32,000 nt of DNA from Rhodobacter capsulatus SB 1003. Lineage in GTDB: Bacteria; Pseudomonadota; Alphaproteobacteria; Rhodobacterales; Rhodobacteraceae. Below the pieces are notes generated by a model. It had not been told where the DNA came from, searched no databases, and saw nothing but the letters and a program-made list of their open reading frames with translations. Shown here piece by piece: positions 1 to 30,789 of this stretch. Each line of letters begins with the position of its first letter. The first letter of the stretch is position 1. The translations under genes were made by a program, and so were the position numbers. The stretch is from contig NC_014034.1 in assembly GCF_000021865.1 (NCBI RefSeq), positions 270,001 to 302,000 of the forward strand, given 5' to 3'.

Positions 1-8
1 GGGTGCTT

Positions 9-219
9 TGACCGAGGCCATCGCCGAGGTCACGCGCGACAATGGCCCCGTGACCGGCGAGGGCCCAAAGGCCCTCGGCCTGCGCCCGCCCCGCCATCGG
101 CGGGCGCTGTCGCGCCGCCGGGGCGGAGCGCAGGCCTCTGTTGCGCTTGGGGAAACGGTCTTGCGGCAGCCGTGGCGATACGGGCGGGGAAAGGCGGTGC
201 CTTTCCTTTTCCGCCCGAA
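9..219 (+). repeat. Family-1 ~210-bp multi-hairpin intergenic repeat, copy A (left boundary close to window edge)
   Basis: Aligns by eye along its length with 5488-5702 and 12461-12672. Hairpins: GACCGAGGC-CATC-GCCGAGGTC, CGAGGGCC-CAAA-GGCCCTCG, GCGCCCGCC-loop-GGCGGGCGC, and a terminal nested hairpin CGGGCGG/GGAAAGGC-GGT-GCCTTTCC/TTTT/CCGCCCG. Ends about 6 nt before the stop codon of the minus-strand CDS at 226. Confidence 0.85.
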
Positions 220-225
220 ACACGC

Positions 226-1245
226 TTAGGCCAGCATGTCCCGCACCATCGGCGCGACCTTGCTGCCGTAAAGCGCGATCGCATCGCGCAGATGCGCGGG
301 GTTTTGCGGCCCGGCCGAGTATTTCAGCGTGAACCGGTCCAGCCCCAGCGCCTTGACCGTGGTCGCGATCTTCTTCGCCACCGTCTCCGGGCTGCCGACA
401 TAAAGCGAGCCATGGGCGATTTCCGCCTCGAAGGCCGCCTTGGTGAAACGCGGCCAGCCGCGCGAACGCCCGATCAGATCGTGCATCGTGGCATAGGCCG
501 GGAAATAGCGTTCCTTCGCCTCGTCATCGGTCGCCGCGACATGGCCCGGCGAATGCACCGACAGCGGCAGCATCTGTGCCCCCATCCGCGCGCGGGTGTG
601 GCGGTAAAGATCGGCCATCGGGGTGAATCGGGCCGGATTGCCGCCGATGATCGCCATGACCAGGGGCATGTCCATCGCCGCCGCCTCCAGCACCGAGTCG
701 GGGCTGCCGCCGACCCCGCGCCAGACCTGCAGCGGCCGTTCCGGGCGCGGATAGACCGTCACGCCCTTCAGGGCCGGGCGGTGGCTGCCTTGAAAGCTGA
801 TCTTCTCCTGCGCCACAAGGCTTTGCAAAAGCTGCGCCTTTTCGGTGAAGAGCGTCTCGTAATCGTTCAGGTCAAAGCCGAACAGCGGGAAGCTTTCGGT
901 GAAGGATCCCCGCCCGATCGTCAGCTCCGCCCGTCCCGGCGCCAGCGCATCCAGCGTCGCAAGGCGCTGAAACACCCGGATCGGATCGTCCGAGGACAGC
1001 ACCGTGACCGAGGTCCCGGCATGGATCCGTTCGGTCGAGGCAAGGATCGCCCCCAAAAGCGGCTCCATTGCCGAGATCGCGAAATCCGGGCGGTGGTGTT
1101 CGCCCAGACCGATGTAATCCAGCCCGACCTGATCGGCCAGAACCGCCTCGGCCAGCGTGTCGCGGATCACCTGCGCGCCCGAGCGGGGCCCGATCGCATC
1201 GGCGGTGATGTCGCCAAAAGTATCAAGGCCGAATTCAAGCACCAT
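226..1245 (-). CDS. LLM-class (luciferase-like) flavin-dependent oxidoreductase
   Basis: Translation MVLEFGLDTFGD...GLGEHH...FTLKYS is typical of luciferase-like monooxygenases. Start moved to the internal ATG at 1245 because GGAAAGGAGG lies 4-5 nt upstream; the track ORF extends to 1281. Confidence 0.85.
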   Translation of the reverse strand: MVLEFGLDTFGDITADAIGPRSGAQVIRDTLAEAVLADQVGLDYIGLGEHHRPDFAISAMEPLLGAILASTERIHAGTSVTVLSSDDPIRVFQRLATLDALAPGRAELTIGRGSFTESFPLFGFDLNDYETLFTEKAQLLQSLVAQEKISFQGSHRPALKGVTVYPRPERPLQVWRGVGGSPDSVLEAAAMDMPLVMAIIGGNPARFTPMADLYRHTRARMGAQMLPLSVHSPGHVAATDDEAKERYFPAYATMHDLIGRSRGWPRFTKAAFEAEIAHGSLYVGSPETVAKKIATTVKALGLDRFTLKYSAGPQNPAHLRDAIALYGSKVAPMVRDMLA

Positions 1246-4719: not shown

Positions 4720-5478
4720 ATGTTCGAAGTTTCCCTTGATCTGGCCCTGTCGCTGATCGGCGCGGCCTTTGTGGCCGGGTTTGTCGATGCGATCGCGGGG
4801 GGCGGCGGGCTGATCACCCTGCCGGTGCTGCTGCTGGCCGGGGCGACGCCGTTGCAGGCGTTTTCGACGAACAAGGTGCAGGGCGCTTTCGGCGCGGCCA
4901 CCGCGGCCTTGACCTATGCGGCCAAGGGGCAGGTCAATCTGCGCGCGCAGCTGGGGGCGGCGTCGCTTGCGTTTCTGTCGGGGCTGGCGGGGGCGTTTCT
5001 GGTCTCGGTGCTGCCGACCGAGGCGTTGCGGCGGGTGCTGCCCTTCATCCTGATCGCGATCGCGGCCTTTTTCGCCTTGCGCAAGGGGCTTGACGACACC
5101 GACCGCGCCGAGCGGATCCGGCCCGCGGCCTTTGCCGCCTTTGTCGTGCCGCTGATCGGGTTTTACGACGGGCTGATCGGGCCCGGCGCGGGGGCGTTCT
5201 ACATGATCGGCTTCGTGATGCTGGCGGGCTATGGCGTGCTGAAGGCCACGGCGCATACGAAACTTCTGAATTTCGCCTCGAATCTGGGCGGGCTGGTGGC
5301 CTTTGCCGCGATCGGGGCGCCCTGGTGGGTGACCGGGATCGCGATGGGCCTGGCGCAGGTCGCTGGCGCCAGTCTGGGGGCAAGGCTGGCGATGAAAAAG
5401 GGGGCGCGGCTGATCAAGCCGCTGCTGGTCGTGACCTCGACCGCGCTGGCGGTGCGGCTGATCTGGCAGATGATCTGA
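4720..5478 (+). CDS. TSUP-family (TauE/SafE-like) anion exporter
   Basis: Hydrophobic protein with GGGGLITLPVLLLAG and TNK motifs. Start set at the ATG at 4720, which is preceded by GGAGG 5 nt upstream; the track ORF starts at 4675. Confidence 0.85.
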   Translation: MFEVSLDLALSLIGAAFVAGFVDAIAGGGGLITLPVLLLAGATPLQAFSTNKVQGAFGAATAALTYAAKGQVNLRAQLGAASLAFLSGLAGAFLVSVLPTEALRRVLPFILIAIAAFFALRKGLDDTDRAERIRPAAFAAFVVPLIGFYDGLIGPGAGAFYMIGFVMLAGYGVLKATAHTKLLNFASNLGGLVAFAAIGAPWWVTGIAMGLAQVAGASLGARLAMKKGARLIKPLLVVTSTALAVRLIWQMI

Positions 5479-5487
5479 GGCGGCTTG

Positions 5488-5702
5488 TCTTGGCCTCGGC
5501 CATCGCCGAGGCCATGCCGGACATCAGCCCCGTGACCGCCGAGGGCCCAAAGGCCCTCGGCCAGCGCCCGCCCCGCTCCCGGCGGGCGCTTCTCGCCCGC
5601 CGGGACGGGCGCCGGCCTTTGTTGCGCCTGGGGCTGCCGGTCCCGGTTGCGCCCTCCCGCTTTCGGGCGGGGAAAGGCAGTGCCTTTCCTGATCCGCCCG
5701 GA
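5488..5702 (+). repeat. Family-1 ~210-bp multi-hairpin intergenic repeat, copy B
   Basis: Occupies nearly the whole spacer between the convergent stops at 5478 (+) and 5717 (-). Hairpins: GGCCTCGGC-CATC-GCCGAGGCC (perfect 9 bp), GCCGAGGGCC-CAAA-GGCCCTCGGC (perfect 10 bp), AGCGCCCGCC-CCGCTCCC-GGCGGGCGCT (10 bp), and terminal CGGGCGG/GGAAAGGC-AGT-GCCTTTCC/TGAT/CCGCCCG. Confidence 0.9.
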
Positions 5703-5716
5703 CCGAGGTTGGCTCC

Positions 5717-6715
5717 TCAGCAAAACCCCGAGGCCAGCCGCATGCCGCCCGTGGCCAGCCCGCGCCAGTTCCGGCTGACCGGCGGCACCAGCTCCGCCAC
5801 TACCGGATGATCCGGGGCCAGCGCGCCCAGATGCACCAAAAGCGCGGTGATCGCCGCTTCCGAGGCCCGCGTGGCGCCATCGGTGATCTTCAGCGCCACG
5901 CCGCGGCCCTGCTCCGGCAGGATCGCGACGAAAACCCCCTCGGCCCCGGTCTTTACCGCGACCTTGCCGCCCATCGCCCGCATCAGCTTCGTGCAGGCGC
6001 GGTTTTCCCCCGCCACCAACTCCGGAAAGGTCGTCATCGCCTGCACCAGCTGCGCCGCGGCGCCCGCGCGCAGGCCGCCCTCGGGCCGGGCGGCGGCAAA
6101 GAAGTGCATCGCCCGTGCCAGCCCCTCCAGCGTGCAGGCGAAATTCGGCGCCGAACAGCCGTCGATCCCCCAGCCCGCCGCCGTCTCGCCCGTCACCTCC
6201 TCAAAGGCCGCGCGGGCGGCAAGCTGCACCGGATGGTCGATCTCGACATAGTCGGGCCCACCCTTCAGATGCCGGTTCAGCGTCAGGAACCCGGCATGCT
6301 TGCCCGAGCAATTGTTGTGCAGCTGACAGGGGCTTTCCCCCGAACCGCTCAGCCGCGTCGCCTCTGCCTTGTCAAAGGGCAGATGCGTGCCGCAGCGCAG
6401 ATCGGCCTCGCCGAGGCCCAGACCCGTCAGCCAGGCGCTCACCGCCCCCACATGCAGCGCCGCCCCGGAATGGCTGGCGCAAGACAGCGCCAGTTCCCGA
6501 AGCCCCAGCCCGGCGGCCTTTGCCGCCCCGCTTTCGAGCAGCGGCAGCGCCTGCACCATCTTGCAAGACGAGCGCGGAAAGACCACCGCCCCCGCATCCC
6601 CCCACACCCTTTCCACGCCCTGTGGCCCGTAAACGACCGCATGGCCGCTGTGCAGGCTTTCCGGCAAATCCCCGCGCCAGATCTCGATCAATGCCGCCGC
6701 TGCCATCCAATCCAT
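5717..6715 (-). CDS. Asparaginase-family protein (Asparaginase_II / PF06089-like)
   Basis: 332 aa with the characteristic PRSSCKMVQALP, HSGAALH and HNNCSGKHAG motifs. An alternative in-frame ATG lies 9 nt downstream. Confidence 0.85.
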   Translation of the reverse strand: MDWMAAAALIEIWRGDLPESLHSGHAVVYGPQGVERVWGDAGAVVFPRSSCKMVQALPLLESGAAKAAGLGLRELALSCASHSGAALHVGAVSAWLTGLGLGEADLRCGTHLPFDKAEATRLSGSGESPCQLHNNCSGKHAGFLTLNRHLKGGPDYVEIDHPVQLAARAAFEEVTGETAAGWGIDGCSAPNFACTLEGLARAMHFFAAARPEGGLRAGAAAQLVQAMTTFPELVAGENRACTKLMRAMGGKVAVKTGAEGVFVAILPEQGRGVALKITDGATRASEAAITALLVHLGALAPDHPVVAELVPPVSRNWRGLATGGMRLASGFC

Positions 6716-8701: not shown

Positions 8702-8761
8702 AAGGGCGTATTTGCGCCAAGAAAAAACCAGCCAGCTTTTTCTTGGTCCAAATACGCCCTT
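8702..8761. repeat. 60-bp inverted repeat (25-nt arms), likely bidirectional terminator; related to the family-2 core
   Basis: AAGGGCGTATTTGCGCCAAGAAAAA / TTTTTCTTGGTCCAAATACGCCCTT with 2 arm mismatches and a 10-nt loop. Lies between the convergent rlmN (+) and LOG-family (-) stops. The core TATTTGCGCCAAG.AAA resembles GGGATATTTGCACCAAGGTGAAAG at 30688. Confidence 0.65.
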
Positions 8762-11199: not shown

Positions 11200-12459
11200 A
11201 TGAAACACGCGTTGAAACCACTTCTTGTCACCCTTCTGGCCTTTTCGGCGCTGACCGCCTGCGGCGGGCCGCTGGATCGGGGGGGCGTTTCCATGAACAC
11301 GATCGAAGAGATCCCGCCCGTCGATGCCGCGACGCAGGCGGGGATGGATGCCTGGGTCGCGGGCTTCAAGCCCCGCGCGATGGCGGCGGGGATTTCCGAA
11401 GCCACTTGGAACCGCGCGATGCGGAACGTGCCCTATAACCCGAAGGTGATCGAGCGGCAGCAGTTTCAGGCCGAATTCGTCAAGCCGATCTGGGATTACA
11501 TGGACAGCGCGGCGTCGGAGGAACGCATCGCCAATGGCCGGGCGGCGCTGGCGCAATATGACGGCGTGCTGCGCGAGATCGAGGCCCGCTATGGCGTTGA
11601 CAAGGAAGTGGTCGTCGCCGTCTGGGGCATGGAAAGCCGCTATGGCGCCAAGCGCGGCAACACCCTGATCATCCCGGCGCTGGCGACCTTGGCGCATGAC
11701 GGGCGGCGGGCGCAGTTCTTCGAAAGCCAGTTGATCGGCGCCTTGAAGATCCTGCAGGCGGGCGACATCGACCCGGGCCACATGACCGGATCCTGGGCCG
11801 GGGCGATGGGGCATACGCAGTTCATCCCGACCTCTTACCTCGCCTTTGCGGTCGATTTCACCGGCGATGGCAAGCGCGACATCTGGTCGGACAATCCGGC
11901 CGATGCGCTGGCCTCCACCGCGGCCTATCTGGCGCGGTCGGGCTGGTCGAAGGGGCAGCCCTGGGCGGTGGAGGTCTCCCTGCCCGAGGGCTTCGATGTG
12001 GGGCTGGCGGGCAAGGGCACGAAGCGGTCGCCCGCCGACTGGGCGGCGCTGGGCGTGCGCGGCGTGAAGGGCGGGGTGGTGCCGAATTACGGATCGGCCT
12101 CGATCCTTTTGCCCGCGGGGCCGCAGGGTCCGGCGCTGATGATCTTTGGCAATTTCACCGCGATTTCGCGGTATAACAATGCCGATGCCTATGTGATGGG
12201 GGTCGGCCATCTGTCCGACCGGCTGAAGGGGCAGGGGCCGTTCGTGCATCCCTGGCCGCGCGAAGGCCGGGCGCTGACCGATGCCGAAAAGGTCGAGGTG
12301 CAGCGGCTTCTGACCGCGCAGGGCTATGACACCAAGGGCACGGATGGGCTGATCGGCGCGGGCACGATCGGCGCGGTGATGGATTATCAGCGCGACCACG
12401 GCATGACCCCGAACGGCTGGGTGACGATCAAGCTTCTGGAAAGCCTGCGCAAAGGTTGA
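11200..12459 (+). CDS. Lytic murein transglycosylase (MltB-like) lipoprotein with C-terminal peptidoglycan-binding domain
   Basis: Lipobox LTAC-G, transglycosylase core (WGMESRYG, GAMGHTQFIP), and a C-terminal PG_binding_1-like repeat (DGLIGAGTIGAVMDYQRDHGMTPNG). Confidence 0.9.
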   Translation: MKHALKPLLVTLLAFSALTACGGPLDRGGVSMNTIEEIPPVDAATQAGMDAWVAGFKPRAMAAGISEATWNRAMRNVPYNPKVIERQQFQAEFVKPIWDYMDSAASEERIANGRAALAQYDGVLREIEARYGVDKEVVVAVWGMESRYGAKRGNTLIIPALATLAHDGRRAQFFESQLIGALKILQAGDIDPGHMTGSWAGAMGHTQFIPTSYLAFAVDFTGDGKRDIWSDNPADALASTAAYLARSGWSKGQPWAVEVSLPEGFDVGLAGKGTKRSPADWAALGVRGVKGGVVPNYGSASILLPAGPQGPALMIFGNFTAISRYNNADAYVMGVGHLSDRLKGQGPFVHPWPREGRALTDAEKVEVQRLLTAQGYDTKGTDGLIGAGTIGAVMDYQRDHGMTPNGWVTIKLLESLRKG

Positions 12460-12460
12460 T

Positions 12461-12672
12461 CTGGCCGAGGCCATCGCCGAGGCCCTGCGGGACATCAGCC
12501 CCGTGACCGCCGGAGGCCCAAAGGCCCTCGGCCAGCGCCCGCCCCGCCCATGGCGGGCGCTTCTCGCCCGCCGGGACGGGCGCCGGCCTCTGTTCCCGCG
12601 TGAGACAACCGGTCTTGTGGCAATGCTGCGCCGCGGGCGGGGAAACGCCTTGCGTTTCCTTCTCCGCCCGAA
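12461..12672 (+). repeat. Family-1 ~210-bp multi-hairpin intergenic repeat, copy C
   Basis: Starts 1 nt after the mltB-like stop (12459) and ends about 9 nt before the nnrU-family stop (12682). The first ~120 nt differ from copy B at about 8 positions by eye. The terminal hairpin carries a compensatory change (GGAAACGC-CTT-GCGTTTCC). Confidence 0.9.
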
Positions 12673-12681
12673 CCGGCCGGT

Positions 12682-13365
12682 TTACGGCACCGGGCTGATC
12701 CCGATCACCAGCTCATGCAGATGAAAGACCGCCGCCCAGGCGAAGACGGCGATGGCGAGCCGGAGCGCTGACGGCCGCCCCCGCGGGCGCCAGCGGCCGG
12801 TCAGAAGCGCGGCAAAGGGGATCAGGCTGGTCCGCGCCGCAAGACGGTTGAACTCGGCCAGACCGATGCGGCGGATCAGACGCTTTTCCATCGCCCGCAT
12901 CCCGATCAGCGAAAACACCAGAAACACCCCGAACAGGATCGCATGCGCCAGATCGCCGTTCACCAAAAGATGCGCCGCCGCCCAAAGCACCAGCGCCCAG
13001 AGGAACGGTTGCCGCGTGATCCCCGCGATGCCCGGCCGGTCGGGGTCGAAGCCGCTCGCCCGCCCCTCGAAGGCGAAGGGGTTCGGCGCGGCGATCGCAT
13101 AGCTTGAAATCAGGATCACCAGCGGCATCACGATATTCGCGACCCAGCGCATCCAGATCTCTTGCGGCCAGAGTTCGATGAAAGGCGCCCGGGCGGCGGC
13201 CAGGATCAGCCAGTACAGCAACCCCAGCGCAAGGAGGCCAAAGGCGATGCCGTAGCCCGCGCGCCCAAGCGCGGCGACCAGCGGCGCCTTGATCCGCGGC
13301 GTGGCCGGGATCAGATGGGTCGCCATGAAGGCAAGGCCCGCCGCGGAAAACTCAAGCCAATCCAT
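12682..13365 (-). CDS. NnrU-family membrane protein
   Basis: 227 aa polytopic protein. N-terminus FMATHLIPATP and a WAAAHLLVNGD motif are typical of NnrU. Confidence 0.85.
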   Translation of the reverse strand: MDWLEFSAAGLAFMATHLIPATPRIKAPLVAALGRAGYGIAFGLLALGLLYWLILAAARAPFIELWPQEIWMRWVANIVMPLVILISSYAIAAPNPFAFEGRASGFDPDRPGIAGITRQPFLWALVLWAAAHLLVNGDLAHAILFGVFLVFSLIGMRAMEKRLIRRIGLAEFNRLAARTSLIPFAALLTGRWRPRGRPSALRLAIAVFAWAAVFHLHELVIGISPVP

Positions 13366-16318: not shown

Positions 16319-18117
16319 GCGAAAAGCTCGGTCAGTTGGAATTTCGTCACATCGACAAGGCCAAGGTCAGAGATGCGGATTTCCGGGATCACCACCAGCG
16401 CCAAAAGCGAATGCTGCATATAGGCGTTGTTGAGGCTGCAGCCGCAATCGGCCATCGCCTTGACCATCGCTTCGGCCCGCGCGGCGACCTCGGCGGCGGG
16501 GTCGTCGGACATCAGCCCCGCGATGGGCAGGGGCACGGCGGCCAGCTCGGCCCCGTCCTTCCAGACGCTGATGCCGCCGCCCATCTGCCCGAGACGGTTC
16601 GCGACGGCGGCCATCGCGTCGCGGTCGGTGCCCACCACGATCATGTGGTGGCTGTCATGCGCGACGGTCGAGCCGATCGCCATCGAGCCCTTGTAGCCAA
16701 AGCCCGAGACGAAGCCGTTCACCACCTTGCCGGTGCCCCGGTGCCGTTCGACCAGCGCGATCTGCGCCACGTCCTTGGTTTCATCGGGCTGCGCCAGCCC
16801 GTCCACCACCGCCAGCTCTGCGGTCAACGCCTTGGTCGGCGCCTGATTTTCGACGACGCCGATCACCCTTGCCGTCACCGTATTCGCCCCCTCGGGCGCG
16901 GGAATGGCGAAATCCGCAGGCTTGAGGGTCTTGCCCAGATGCACGGTCCTGCGCGCACTTTCGGGCCAGTCGTAATGCGGGCAGGCAACCTTGAGCGTGC
17001 CGTTTTCCGCCACCACCTGCCCCCGGGCGATCACCACCTCGACCGGCAGGGTGACCAGATCCGAGGTCAGGATCACATCCGCCCGCCGACCCGGCGCAAT
17101 CGAGCCCAACTCCCGTTCCAGCCCGAAATGGCTCGCCGTGTTCACCGTGCACATCTGCAGCGCGATCAGGGGATCGCAGCCGCAGGCGACGGCATGGCGG
17201 TAAGCGCGGTTCATGTGGCCTTCGTGGACCAGCGTGCCGGAATGGCAATCGTCGGTGCACAGAATGAAGTTGCGCGGATCGAGGCCGCGCTTCGTCACCG
17301 CGGTGATCTGGCTTTCGATGTCATACCAGGCCGAGCCCAGCCGCAGCATCGCCCGCATCCCCTGCCGCACCCGGGCCACGGCGTCTTCCTCGCAGGTGCC
17401 CTCGTGGTCATCGGCCGGACCGCCCGCGGCATAGGCGCGGAAGGGCGCCCCCAGATCGGGGCTGGCATAATGCCCGCCGACCGTCTTGCCCGCCCGCTGC
17501 GTCGCGGCGATCTCGGCCAGCATCTTGGCATCGGCGCCGATGACACCCGGAAAGTTCATCATCTCGCCCAGGCCCACGATCCCGGGCCAGGACATCGCCT
17601 TGGCCACATCCTCGGGGGTGATCTCATAGCCCGTGGTTTCCAGACCGGGGGCCGAGGGCGCGCAGGACGGCATCTGGGTGAAGATGTTGACGGGTTGAGC
17701 CATCGCCTCGTCATGCATCATCCGCACGCCCGCCAGACCCAGCACATTGGCGATTTCATGCGGGTCGGTGAACATCGTCGTCGTGCCATGCGGGATCACG
17801 GCGGCAGCGAATTCCGCGGGCGTCAGCATGCCGCTTTCGACATGCATGTGACCATCGACCAGACCCGGGATCATGTAGCGGCCCTGCGCCTCGATCACGG
17901 TGGTTTCCGGCCCGATGGCGGCGGAAAGATCGGGGGCGATGGCGGCGAAACGCCCCTCGGCAATCGCGATGTCGTAGCCGTCCAGCACTTCGCGGCTTTG
18001 GACGTTGACCCATTTGCCCTGCCGGATCACGCAATCGGCAGGCGAACGGCCCGCGGCGACGGCAATCAGACGCGGCGCGGCCTCGGGCCAGGTTTTGAGA
18101 GATGTCATATGTTCCAT
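16315..18117 (-). CDS. ade: Adenine deaminase (amidohydrolase superfamily)
   Basis: Motifs GLVDGHMHVESGMLTP and IPHGTTTMFTDPHEIANV are the Ade signature. The start is ambiguous between ATGs at 18117 and 18108; the track ORF starts at 18195. Confidence 0.9.
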   Translation of the reverse strand: MEHMTSLKTWPEAAPRLIAVAAGRSPADCVIRQGKWVNVQSREVLDGYDIAIAEGRFAAIAPDLSAAIGPETTVIEAQGRYMIPGLVDGHMHVESGMLTPAEFAAAVIPHGTTTMFTDPHEIANVLGLAGVRMMHDEAMAQPVNIFTQMPSCAPSAPGLETTGYEITPEDVAKAMSWPGIVGLGEMMNFPGVIGADAKMLAEIAATQRAGKTVGGHYASPDLGAPFRAYAAGGPADDHEGTCEEDAVARVRQGMRAMLRLGSAWYDIESQITAVTKRGLDPRNFILCTDDCHSGTLVHEGHMNRAYRHAVACGCDPLIALQMCTVNTASHFGLERELGSIAPGRRADVILTSDLVTLPVEVVIARGQVVAENGTLKVACPHYDWPESARRTVHLGKTLKPADFAIPAPEGANTVTARVIGVVENQAPTKALTAELAVVDGLAQPDETKDVAQIALVERHRGTGKVVNGFVSGFGYKGSMAIGSTVAHDSHHMIVVGTDRDAMAAVANRLGQMGGGISVWKDGAELAAVPLPIAGLMSDDPAAEVAARAEAMVKAMADCGCSLNNAYMQHSLLALVVIPEIRISDLGLVDVTKFQLTELFA

Positions 18118-25630: not shown

Positions 25631-25669
25631 GTGACAAAATATCCCCGCCGCGGGACGGCCCGGGCGGGG
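25631..25669 (-). terminator. Intrinsic terminator after the DUF3576 gene; degenerate family-2-like tail
   Basis: Minus strand reads CCCCGCC-CGGG-CCGT-CCCG-C-GGCGGGG followed by ATATTTTGTCAC. The GGGGATATTTTG tail resembles the family-2 core. Confidence 0.55.
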
Positions 25670-25690
25670 AGAGGGCCCTTGTCGAAAGGC

Positions 25691-26200: not shown

Positions 26201-26482
26201 ACGATCGACTGCCCCCGCAGGCTGAACCCATTGGCTTTTCCTGTCTCTAGCCGATGGCCGGGGGGGCGACAAGATTTTTCCCCCCGCGGGACCGCCCGCG
26301 GCGGGGCGCAACCTCCCGCCGGTCCCCAGCGGGGGACTGTGGCAAAGCTGCACCACGCGGTTTCGCTTTGGCCGCTTCGGTCCCGTTTTCGTTGCAATAT
26401 GAGGCGTGGCGAGAGAAAAAGCCTTCATACCCACCTCGGATTCCCCCTGAGTTGGGGCTTACCTTAGCAAAATGAGGGAAAA

Positions 26483-28189: not shown

Positions 28190-28740
28190 GCCTTGTCGGC
28201 GGACCGGGGCGCTGCCCCGGACCCCGGGATATTTTTCGCAAGATAAAAGCAGGAAAGCGGCGGGATCAACAGCTCGGTGCCGGGTTTCAGGCGGCGCGCG
28301 AGTTTGATCAGGTCGGCACGGCCAAGCGCAAGGCAGCCTGCCGTGGGGTAGCCCAGGCGACGGCGCTGATGCAGGAAGATCGCCGAGCCCTTGCCGGGGG
28401 TGGCTTTCGGATAGTTCCAATCGGTGATCAGCACGATGTCGTAAAGCGGATCGCGGCGGGCCATGCGTTCGTGGCTGGCCTTGAACGGCGCGCGGACGGG
28501 CTGGTTGTAGGCGGGGTGGCCGGGATCGTCGCACCACAGATCCTGCGGGCCGATCGGCTTCGCCCAAGGGGCGGGGCGGGGCAGGCGGTCGGCGCGGTAC
28601 AGCAGGCCGACGATGCGCAACCGGCCCACCGGGGTGGCGCCGTCGCCTTCGCGTTTGGTGGCGGAGAGCCCGCCGCGGCCGATCTGCACCGGATGGCGGC
28701 GGCCGTGGAACAGAAGCCCGGTGGCGGTCAGACGGATCAC
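28186..28740 (-). CDS. L,D-transpeptidase (YkuD) family protein
   Basis: Catalytic-region pattern GSAIFLHQ...PTAGCLAL. The ATG overlaps the ribA stop (ATGA). The last ~22 codons are encoded by the family-2 repeat at 28201-28250. Confidence 0.78.
28201..28250 (+). repeat. Family-2 module; acts as the likely yggS terminator
   Basis: CCGGGGC-GCT-GCCCCGG hairpin followed by ACCCCGGGATATTTTTCGCAAGATAAAAG. Matches 2642-2702 and the arms at 30661-30789. Confidence 0.65.
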
Positions 28741-30660: not shown

Positions 30661-30789
30661 CGGGGGTTTCACACCCCCGCGCCCCCGTGGGATATTTGCA
30701 CCAAGGTGAAAGGGCACCCCGGGATCTGCTTTCACCTTGGTGAAAATATCCCGGGGGGAGTCCGCTTGCGGACGGGGGGCAGCGCCCCC
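30661..30789. repeat. Two head-to-head family-2 modules forming a ~130-bp palindromic element; likely bidirectional terminator
   Basis: 24-nt arms GGGATATTTGCACCAAGGTGAAAG (30688-30711) and CTTTCACCTTGGTGAAAATATCCC (30728-30751) with 1 mismatch. Flanked by GC hairpins GGGGG-TTTCACA-CCCCC and GGGGGG-CAGCG-CCCCCC. Fills the spacer between convergent stops at 30647 (+) and 30791 (-). Confidence 0.75.

Follow-up and report, generated by a model that had tools for sequence, protein, structure and literature searches.

A family of hairpin-rich intergenic repeats between convergent genes of Rhodobacter capsulatus and its relatives

Stretches of about 212 nt, currently left blank by annotation pipelines, separate several pairs of converging genes in Rhodobacter capsulatus SB 1003, and they raise the question of what they are, how they came to lie there and why they are kept. 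Three of them (copies A, B and C) occur as direct copies between convergent stop codons in the window analysed here, i.e. the whole 32,000-nt stretch of contig NC_014034.1 from position 270,001 to 302,000 (coordinates below are positions in this window unless an L-number, which designates a fetched locus or contig, is given). They belong to an undescribed family of intergenic repeats found in the R. capsulatus complex, Rhodobacter viridis and uncultured freshwater Rhodobacter-like bacteria. The unit is a directional mosaic of four hairpins (H1, H2, H3a and H5), which are joined in a fixed order by freely evolving linkers and are backed by strong compensatory covariation. Past mobility of the unit is supported by orthologous sites that are empty in some strains and filled in others, and the hairpins of resident copies are, as judged from divergence between orthologs, under purifying selection, carrying nearly all of the constraint. 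The reading that we consider plausible, and about evenly poised between right and wrong, is that of a mobile hairpin mosaic, REP/BIME-like yet distinct, that colonises gene 3' ends and is kept there for a function independent of its orientation.

A covariance model built from the sequence of four copies matched the window at 2-224, 5483-5708 and 12454-12677, all on the + strand with approximately 180 bits (E ~1e-53), and gave no further match in the rest of the window; the nhmmer cores begin at 8, 5490 and 12462. Copies B and C are 92% identical across the first 133 nt and copies A and B 76% (repeat finder, 133-nt family), while the 3' hairpin, detected as a 42-nt repeat family, is 83-86% identical among the three. 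The three-way alignment spans ~215 nt with a mean column identity of 83%. All three copies fill their convergent spacers, with 1-20 nt to each stop codon. Copy A starts ~20 nt past the stop of a + strand gene lying left of the window (L001) and ends 6 nt before the stop of a luciferase-like monooxygenase gene (226-228, minus strand). Copy B lies ~12 nt from the TauE stop (5476-5478, +) and 14 nt from the asparaginase II stop (5717-5719, -), and copy C lies 2 nt from the SLT stop (12457-12459, +) and ~9 nt from the NnrU stop (12682-12684, -). These flanking genes were named by Pfam, whereas the gene left of copy A reads as AFG1/ZapE-like on the basis of its Walker A motif (LWGGVGRGKSMLMD) only. 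An earlier sequence-only reading of this DNA had described three copies of ~210 bp at these places, B and C being close and A more diverged. It had listed their modules as a CATC hairpin, a CAAA hairpin, a GC hairpin with an 8-nt loop, a variable stretch and a nested terminal hairpin, and had taken copies B and C to be in effect the convergent spacer itself. The copies were confirmed by the covariance model, nhmmer and the repeat finder, and the other parts of this description hold as well.

To examine the distribution of the family, one genome of each species was scanned for exact matches to a 19-mer of H2, and 51 stretches were returned. Thirty-eight of these are from Rhodobacter (R. capsulatus DSM 1710, 15; SP108, 9; SP36, 3; SP18, 5; R. 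viridis, 6), and the element is present in every one of the 38, at full length in 36 and truncated in two (L028 and L030). The remaining 13, from unrelated taxa, match the hairpin only (at most 17 bits); the 43 full-length copies in the Rhodobacter loci score 135-187 bits. These 43 copies were grouped into 28 loci, eight of which are common to at least two genomes. Eight copies lie on two complete chromosomes. In freshwater metagenomes, the motif of the terminal hairpin H5 was found in at least 120 contigs, and these contain at least 254 nhmmer matches. A protein from an array-carrying contig is 93% identical to one labelled "MAG: Rhodobacter sp." and ~70-75% identical to proteins of Cereibacter and Tabrizicola. 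As copies were found via exact seeds (a 19-mer and a 26-mer), all copy numbers are lower bounds. One of the two truncated elements, in R. viridis (L028, 2678-2775), is a decayed copy, reduced to its first ~98 nt by a deletion between direct repeats of CGCCCG.

The sequence-only reading had recognised no described family in the repeat, and the searches made agree with it. At gathering thresholds Rfam 15 had no match in the window; with the limit relaxed to E <=10, the region 5400-5800 gave chance-level matches alone (at most 17 bits). Neither a scan for tRNA and tmRNA nor a blastn search against 72,556 plasmids returned a match. Three motif strings of the element were not found in a text search of 8 million papers, literature searches on R. 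capsulatus repeats, REP/RAYT and IS200 brought up no description of the repeat, and 79 supplementary files of a paper related to the R. capsulatus small RNA (sRNA) survey showed no match to the element.

Alignment of the 43 copies with their flanks showed that the unit has sharp ends, namely 5' (T)TG[G/A]CCGAGGCCATCGCC... and ...TCCGCCCGAA(AC) 3', which can also be written 5' TTGRCCGAGG... and ...CCGCCCGAA 3'. The two ends are not complementary, and terminal inverted repeats were found neither in the window copies nor in the 43-copy alignment. H1 begins 1-3 nt from the 5' end and H5 stops 2-6 nt from the 3' end (Table 1). The hairpins at the two ends differ, H1 having a CATC loop and G.A mismatches and H5 being nested with a 4-nt internal loop. 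No conserved tetra- or pentanucleotide precedes the left end, where the flanks vary (GATC, GATT, GTCT, CGAC, GCCA and others), and the aligned copies share no tetranucleotide head before their hairpins. No hairpin is followed by a U-run: a terminator scan gave two weak partial matches, at 5599-5616 and 12637-12653, both lacking a T-run. No conserved promoter-like or terminator-like signal was found in the unit.

Table 1. Copies of the repeat in the window and modules of the unit as they occur in copy B
Feature	Position	Strand	Description
Copy A (TTTGACCGAGG...CCGCCCGAAA)	8..220	+	between AFG1/ZapE-like gene and luciferase-like monooxygenase stop
Copy B	5490..5702	+	spacer TauE / asparaginase II
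Copy C	12461..12673	+	spacer SLT-domain transglycosylase / NnrU
H1, copy B	5491..5514	+	10-bp hairpin, CATC loop
H2, copy B	5538..5561	+	10-bp hairpin, invariant CAAA loop
H3a, copy B	5563..5590	+	10-bp GC hairpin AGCGCCCGCC / GGCGGGCGCT, variable 8-nt loop
S3/S4, copy B	5591..5617	+	GC-rich segments CGCCCGCC...GGGCGCCGGCC
Linker and ~22-nt variable segment, copy B	5618..5663	+	locus-specific, marks copy lineage
H5, copy B	5664..5700	+	nested terminal hairpin

Pairing within the hairpins is maintained by changes on both sides of the stems. Of the cells in a model-built alignment (101 distinct sequences), 95.4% are paired, and two-sided change is seen in 15 pairs, compared with 7.3 +/- 0.9 in shuffled alignments (0/500 reach 15) and with at most 7 in slid-partner controls. 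An unbiased mutual-information scan of 183 unique copies placed pairs of H5, H1 and H3a at the top, and RNAalifold independently found H3a, H5 and part of H2. The H5 outer stem is CGGGCGG/CCGCCCG and its inner stem GGAAAGGC/GCCTTTCC, with a 3-nt loop and a one-sided 4-nt internal loop; among 40 Rhodobacter copies one inner pair is G-C in 27, C-G in nine and A-T in four, with zero mismatch. The H1 stem, in which five of the ten pairs have two-sided changes, carries a tandem G.A/A.G mismatch in most copies and Watson-Crick pairs at the same place in copy B; such pairs replace the mismatch in eight of the 40 copies, of which one H1 pair is G-C in 21 and A-T in 16. The closing pair of H3a covaries from A-T to T-A. 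In the single-sequence minimum-free-energy fold, segments S3/S4 pair alternatively with the H3a arms and form a long hairpin, an arrangement that covariation supports less than H3a (67% vs 97% paired). A long-range outer stem around H3 (H3c) was rejected on the same comparison, with 67% paired against 97% for the local H3a. The idea that H5 is a separate, abundant REP-like hairpin was also dropped, just four unrelated solo matches being found outside copies in ~0.45 Mb. Fold z-scores against shuffles are -6.8 and -6.5 for RNA of the two strands and -7.9 for single-stranded DNA (ssDNA). Neither strand is favoured, because G.T and A.C exceptions are near balance (31 vs 24 in H1 and 18 vs 12 in H3a).

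With flanking genes called from open reading frames (ORFs) of GC3 > GC1 > GC2 signature, convergent genes flank 29 of 41 Rhodobacter copies, at 1-20 nt from each stop. Among the metagenome matches listed, both flanks could be assigned for 33 copies or arrays, of which 19 are convergent, six co-directional sense, eight co-directional antisense and none divergent. The absence of divergent contexts and the 6 to 8 split between sense and antisense indicate that promoter regions are avoided and that orientation is unrelated to the direction of transcription. Arrays of two to eight units account for 42 of 125 metagenome occurrences, and neighbouring units stand on the same strand 81 times and on opposite strands once, i.e. 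head-to-tail (both counts among the matches listed). Most units of an array are separated by 20-30 nt, and those of some lineages adjoin exactly at CCGCCCG(nn)|TTGRCC; the array in L107 lies between convergent genes. A freshwater lineage (L124, whole contig; L107, 8864-9933) has a tandem unit of ~240 nt with an extra conserved piece of ~30 nt (GGATGGGCGAAAGCACCTTCACCGCTGCAA) 3' of H5, which is absent from R. capsulatus copies. An IS5/IS1182-like transposase gene was found inside another array (L068, 583-1827; the same region as L074), with units on both sides. As this gene splits the array, arrays are possible targets of other insertion sequences. No recurrent transposase family was detected beside metagenome copies when 624 ORFs from ~0.65 Mb of flanks were clustered, a weak test that is not genome-wide; the largest groups of flanking ORFs either came from the repeat itself, as artefacts, or encoded generic ABC transporters.

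Orthologous loci, fetched via NnrU homologs, provide the evidence of movement, and the comparison with empty sites in relatives that the sequence-only reading had proposed was carried out on them. In SP18 site B holds no copy: the stops of the TauE and asparaginase genes overlap there in CTAG (ATGATCTAGCAAAACC). Occupied alleles consist of ATGATC TGA followed by 11-15 nt, the element, another 17-21 nt and TCA GCAAAACC. Site C is empty in SP36, with an SLT/NnrU spacer of 15 nt, and in SP18 it consists of a 55-nt spacer with a short H5-like hairpin alone. Comparison of empty with filled alleles showed no target-site duplication at sites B and C, in keeping with the earlier statement that the element has neither inverted ends nor flanking duplications. 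The empty sites may never have been filled or may have been precisely deleted, so that either direction of change may apply. At five of the eight shared loci copies of both orientations are found, as judged against the flanking genes they have in common. Site A is occupied in the same orientation in SP108 (L044) and SP36 (L005) and in the opposite one in DSM 1710 (L014). At site B, the copy in L054 is oriented as in the window, and those in DSM 1710 (L006 and L053) and SP108 (L044) lie the other way round. In the near-identical strains represented by L053 and L054, the site B flanks are 97-100% identical and the orientations of the element are opposite. The variable segments of the flipped copies are unrelated, their junction bases differ, and their identity of only ~80% is the level seen between paralogs in general; the flipped alleles are therefore different copies, and simple in-place inversion of one copy was rejected. 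Remnants of the other orientation lie beside the 5' end of the resident copy at site A (TTTCGGG) and site B (TTCCCCGCCCG), and reverse-complemented 3' ends lie in the same position in L017 and L033, which suggests that new copies land beside old ones and then replace them.

Some further differences were seen among these loci. The site-C copy in L054 (10689-10885) is decayed, being identical to that of L053 save for the internal loss of 23 nt. Gene content near the sites varies between lineages, as comparison of L057 (SP36; 16439-17983) with L053, L054 and L058 shows: SP36 carries a Hint_2-domain gene where the other three have asparaginase II, and a gene for a 213-aa hexapeptide-repeat protein is present in L054 and L057 and absent from L053 and L058.

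Constraint on resident copies was estimated from eight independent pairs of orthologous, same-orientation copies, compared with the third codon positions of the two flanking genes. The element diverged by 7.3% (123/1690) and the third positions by 14.5% (277/1906; Fisher p = 3e-12), with excess conservation at six of the eight loci; as all third positions were used instead of fourfold-degenerate sites, the test is conservative. Substitutions per site amount to 0.9-4.3% in H1, H2, the H3 domain and H5, H2 being the most conserved module (0.9%), and to 10.7-15.7% in the linkers and the variable segment, the latter evolving near the neutral rate. Identity between paralogs is 71-90%, and none of the genomes holds a near-identical pair, so concerted homogenisation fails to explain the conservation. 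Such behaviour is not expected of decaying selfish copies, and the hairpins are constrained in place. Since resident copies appear to be under purifying selection, some function of the hairpins is likely.

Taken as a mobile mosaic that is retained for its use to the host, the unit is, or was, a non-autonomous mobile DNA that would be moved in trans by an enzyme reading folded single-stranded hairpins, and new copies would preferentially land beside the foot of an H5-type hairpin already present. The cluster of hairpins would then be retained since it is useful to both converging transcription units in either orientation. Its most likely and most economical role would be that of a barrier to read-through and to 3'-to-5' RNA decay for both mRNAs. 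GC-rich stem-loops are established as such a barrier in the puf mRNA of R. capsulatus. Both the function and the mobilising enzyme are what we infer from the sequences. Several observations weigh against this reading. As the hairpins lack a U-run, classical intrinsic termination is not predicted, and the lack of near-identical paralogs leaves no sign of current activity in R. capsulatus. Excess conservation is missing at two of the eight loci, namely site C (16.6% vs 17.7%) and L008/L009. Part of the lower divergence of GC-rich palindromes could result from biased repair or intra-hairpin correction and not from host function, and arrays of up to eight units exceed what a terminator or decay barrier would need and fit selfish amplification better.

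That last point leads to the explanation by a purely selfish, non-autonomous ssDNA transposon (an IS200/IS605-type PATE, a REP/RAYT-like element or another element mobilised by an HUH enzyme), in which a transposase of the Y1 or Y2 type, encoded elsewhere, would recognise H1 and H5 in ssDNA, cut the ends and paste by the foot of a hairpin, and conservation would reflect only the requirements of movement. The lack of terminal inverted repeats and target duplications agrees with it, as do the covarying hairpins within a few nt of both ends, the very stable ssDNA fold, the exact 3'-end/5'-end junctions in arrays, which resemble an excised circle junction, the location of new copies directly 3' of H5-like remnants, and the orthologous sites that are empty or filled in either orientation. 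IS200/IS605 elements have similar hairpins at their left and right ends, whereas H1 and H5 are dissimilar, and neither a conserved tetra- or pentanucleotide 5' of the left end nor a uniform orientation was found. In the ~0.65 Mb of metagenome flanks no transposase recurred, the IS5-like gene that splits an array being the sole one; resident copies are apparently under purifying selection, which is unexpected for a decaying selfish copy, and near-identical paralogs are lacking. We regard this explanation as unlikely. The sequence-only reading had proposed a derivative of Y1-transposase elements. Past mobility is borne out by the empty and filled sites, and the lack of inverted ends and duplications stands. 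Uniform orientation does not: the copies agree in orientation inside the window but not elsewhere. The end hairpins are unlike, and no conserved target tetranucleotide was seen. Its REP-type variant is likewise not supported, inverted doublets being absent. A new type of mobile DNA for convergence points, moved as ssDNA by a host-encoded enzyme, homing to its sites and domesticated as a bidirectional insulator, is a rather unlikely extension of the mobile readings. Its targets, entered in either orientation, would be the foot of H5-type hairpins and stop codons that abut or overlap, and such homing would explain the recurrent re-occupation of sites and the head-to-tail arrays; as an insulator it would end or protect both transcripts without a U-run terminator.

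A DNA-level architectural site, at which a cruciform or hairpin cluster would bind a nucleoid protein or DNA gyrase and would relieve or insulate positive supercoiling between converging genes, agrees with the location at convergent and never at divergent junctions, with the independence of orientation, with the arrays and with the equal folding of both strands, and it has a precedent in the reported binding of gyrase and IHF by E. coli BIMEs (PMC3184786). It nevertheless seems quite improbable, as no protein-binding motif was identified, covariation keeps pairing and not sequence, which points to a folded single strand instead of a duplex binding site, and cruciform extrusion of 10-bp GC stems would presumably be costly in energy. 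A strand-specific structured RNA, either a family of sRNA genes (sometimes in arrays) or an element in the 3' untranslated region (UTR) of the upstream gene's mRNA, is very improbable. It could account for the strong covariation, the conserved CAUC and CAAA loops, the purifying selection on the hairpins, the tandem arrays, which recall known sRNA arrays, and the sense position of all three window copies after a + strand gene. Against it, orientation relative to the flanking genes flips at orthologous sites, the co-directional contexts are six sense vs eight antisense (among the matches listed), the unit has no conserved promoter-like or terminator-like signal, and G.T and A.C exceptions are about balanced between the strands. 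It also has no Rfam match even at E <=10, and the text of the R. capsulatus sRNA survey, its tables aside, makes no mention of a repeat family. The sequence-only reading had held such a 3' UTR or sRNA to be equally open, and this judgement is not borne out, orientation being random with respect to transcription.

In its behaviour the unit is closest to the REP/BIME/REPIN repeats and to the pneumococcal SPRITE. The former, mobilised in gamma-proteobacteria by the Y1 enzyme RAYT, are likewise extragenic, GC-rich palindromes that lie at the 3' ends of genes and favour convergent pairs; they persist for long at orthologous sites, form clusters and lack MITE-type terminal inverted repeats, and they have been proposed to protect mRNA 3' ends and to bind gyrase or IHF (PMC3184786, PMC2817692). 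They differ in consisting of a 20-40-nt palindrome with a GTAG-type head, whereas here ~212 nt hold four different hairpins in fixed order, and their alternating or inverted doublets differ from the head-to-tail units described here (81 to 1 among the matches listed). No RAYT gene was seen near the copies in the weak test of metagenome flanks, and there is no sequence similarity. SPRITE and BOX of Streptococcus pneumoniae are also modular, structured intergenic repeats, and SPRITE shares the 3'-end and convergent bias, the stem-loops and the persistence (PMC3184786, PMC2817692). Both belong to another phylum and have no sequence similarity to the unit; SPRITE resembles a Rho-independent terminator while the R. 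capsulatus unit lacks a U-run, and BOX modules vary in number per unit while the order of modules is fixed here. PATEs derived from IS200/IS605 resemble the unit in the lack of terminal inverted repeats and target duplication, the subterminal hairpins at both ends, the directional unit and the exact right-end/left-end junctions in arrays. They are set apart by the dissimilar H1 and H5, the lack of a conserved left-flank target, the occurrence of both orientations at one site and the apparent selection on resident copies, and no parent insertion sequence with matching ends was found. The unit differs from classical MITEs by the lack of terminal inverted repeats and target-site duplication and from intrinsic (Rho-independent) terminators by hairpins that no U-run follows; that it is not a plain intrinsic terminator had already been argued from the window copies and holds for the family. 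CIR of Caulobacter and RIME of Rhizobium are repeats of more than 100 bp with palindromic parts and tens of copies in alpha-proteobacteria (PMC3184786) and thus share with the unit its length, intergenic location and palindromic parts. CIR is defined by CcrM (GANTC) sites, none of which was seen by eye in the consensus, and is set apart by description only. As it lacks defining features of REP/BIME (unit size, head motif, alternating orientation), MITEs (inverted ends, duplication), PATEs (like end hairpins, conserved target, fixed orientation) and intrinsic terminators (U-run), we place the unit among structured intergenic repeats and outside any named family.

The repeat offers a system for two open questions, how repeats without transposase genes, inverted ends and target duplications spread and why they persist, with the same convergent junction in empty, forward and reverse states among close strains of a genetically tractable bacterium. 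If both transcripts were indeed ended or stabilised by it, this would also explain how, in GC-rich alpha-proteobacteria with their few U-run terminators, genes with abutting or overlapping stops escape interference between their transcripts.

Among the neighbouring genes, the asparaginase II protein of the window is identical to one in GCA_000506565.2, and the named homologs that match other proteins encoded nearby best are from R. capsulatus. In the same assembly the AFG1/ZapE-like frame (L001, 16730-17810, minus) has no gene call, leaving a "gene-free" gap of 1.4 kb, and a C-run in this frame (gccccccccgagcc) suggests a frameshift or an assembly error.

Other repeats were also observed. A second, unrelated palindrome family (CCCCGGGATATTT..CAAGGTGAAAG / CTTTCACCTTGG..AAATATCCCGGGG) occurs at 2657-2700, 28204-28252 and 30683-30758, corresponding to direct repeat D13 and inverted repeats I7 and I8, and is also found in L007, upstream of its copy of the 212-nt unit. 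A GC-rich inverted repeat of 28 nt (CCCCGCCGCGGGACGGCCCGGGCGGGGA / TCCCCCCGCGGGACCGCCCGCGGCGGGG, 82% complementary) has its arms at 25643-25670 and 26279-26306, 608 nt apart, where they bracket a short ORF region. The spacer after an RlmN-like gene holds, at 8702-8761, a 25-nt inverted repeat (AAGGGCGTATTTGCGCCAAGAAAAA / TTTTTCTTGGTCCAAATACGCCCTT, 92% complementary, 10 nt between the arms) whose TATTTG..CAAG core recalls the second palindrome family.

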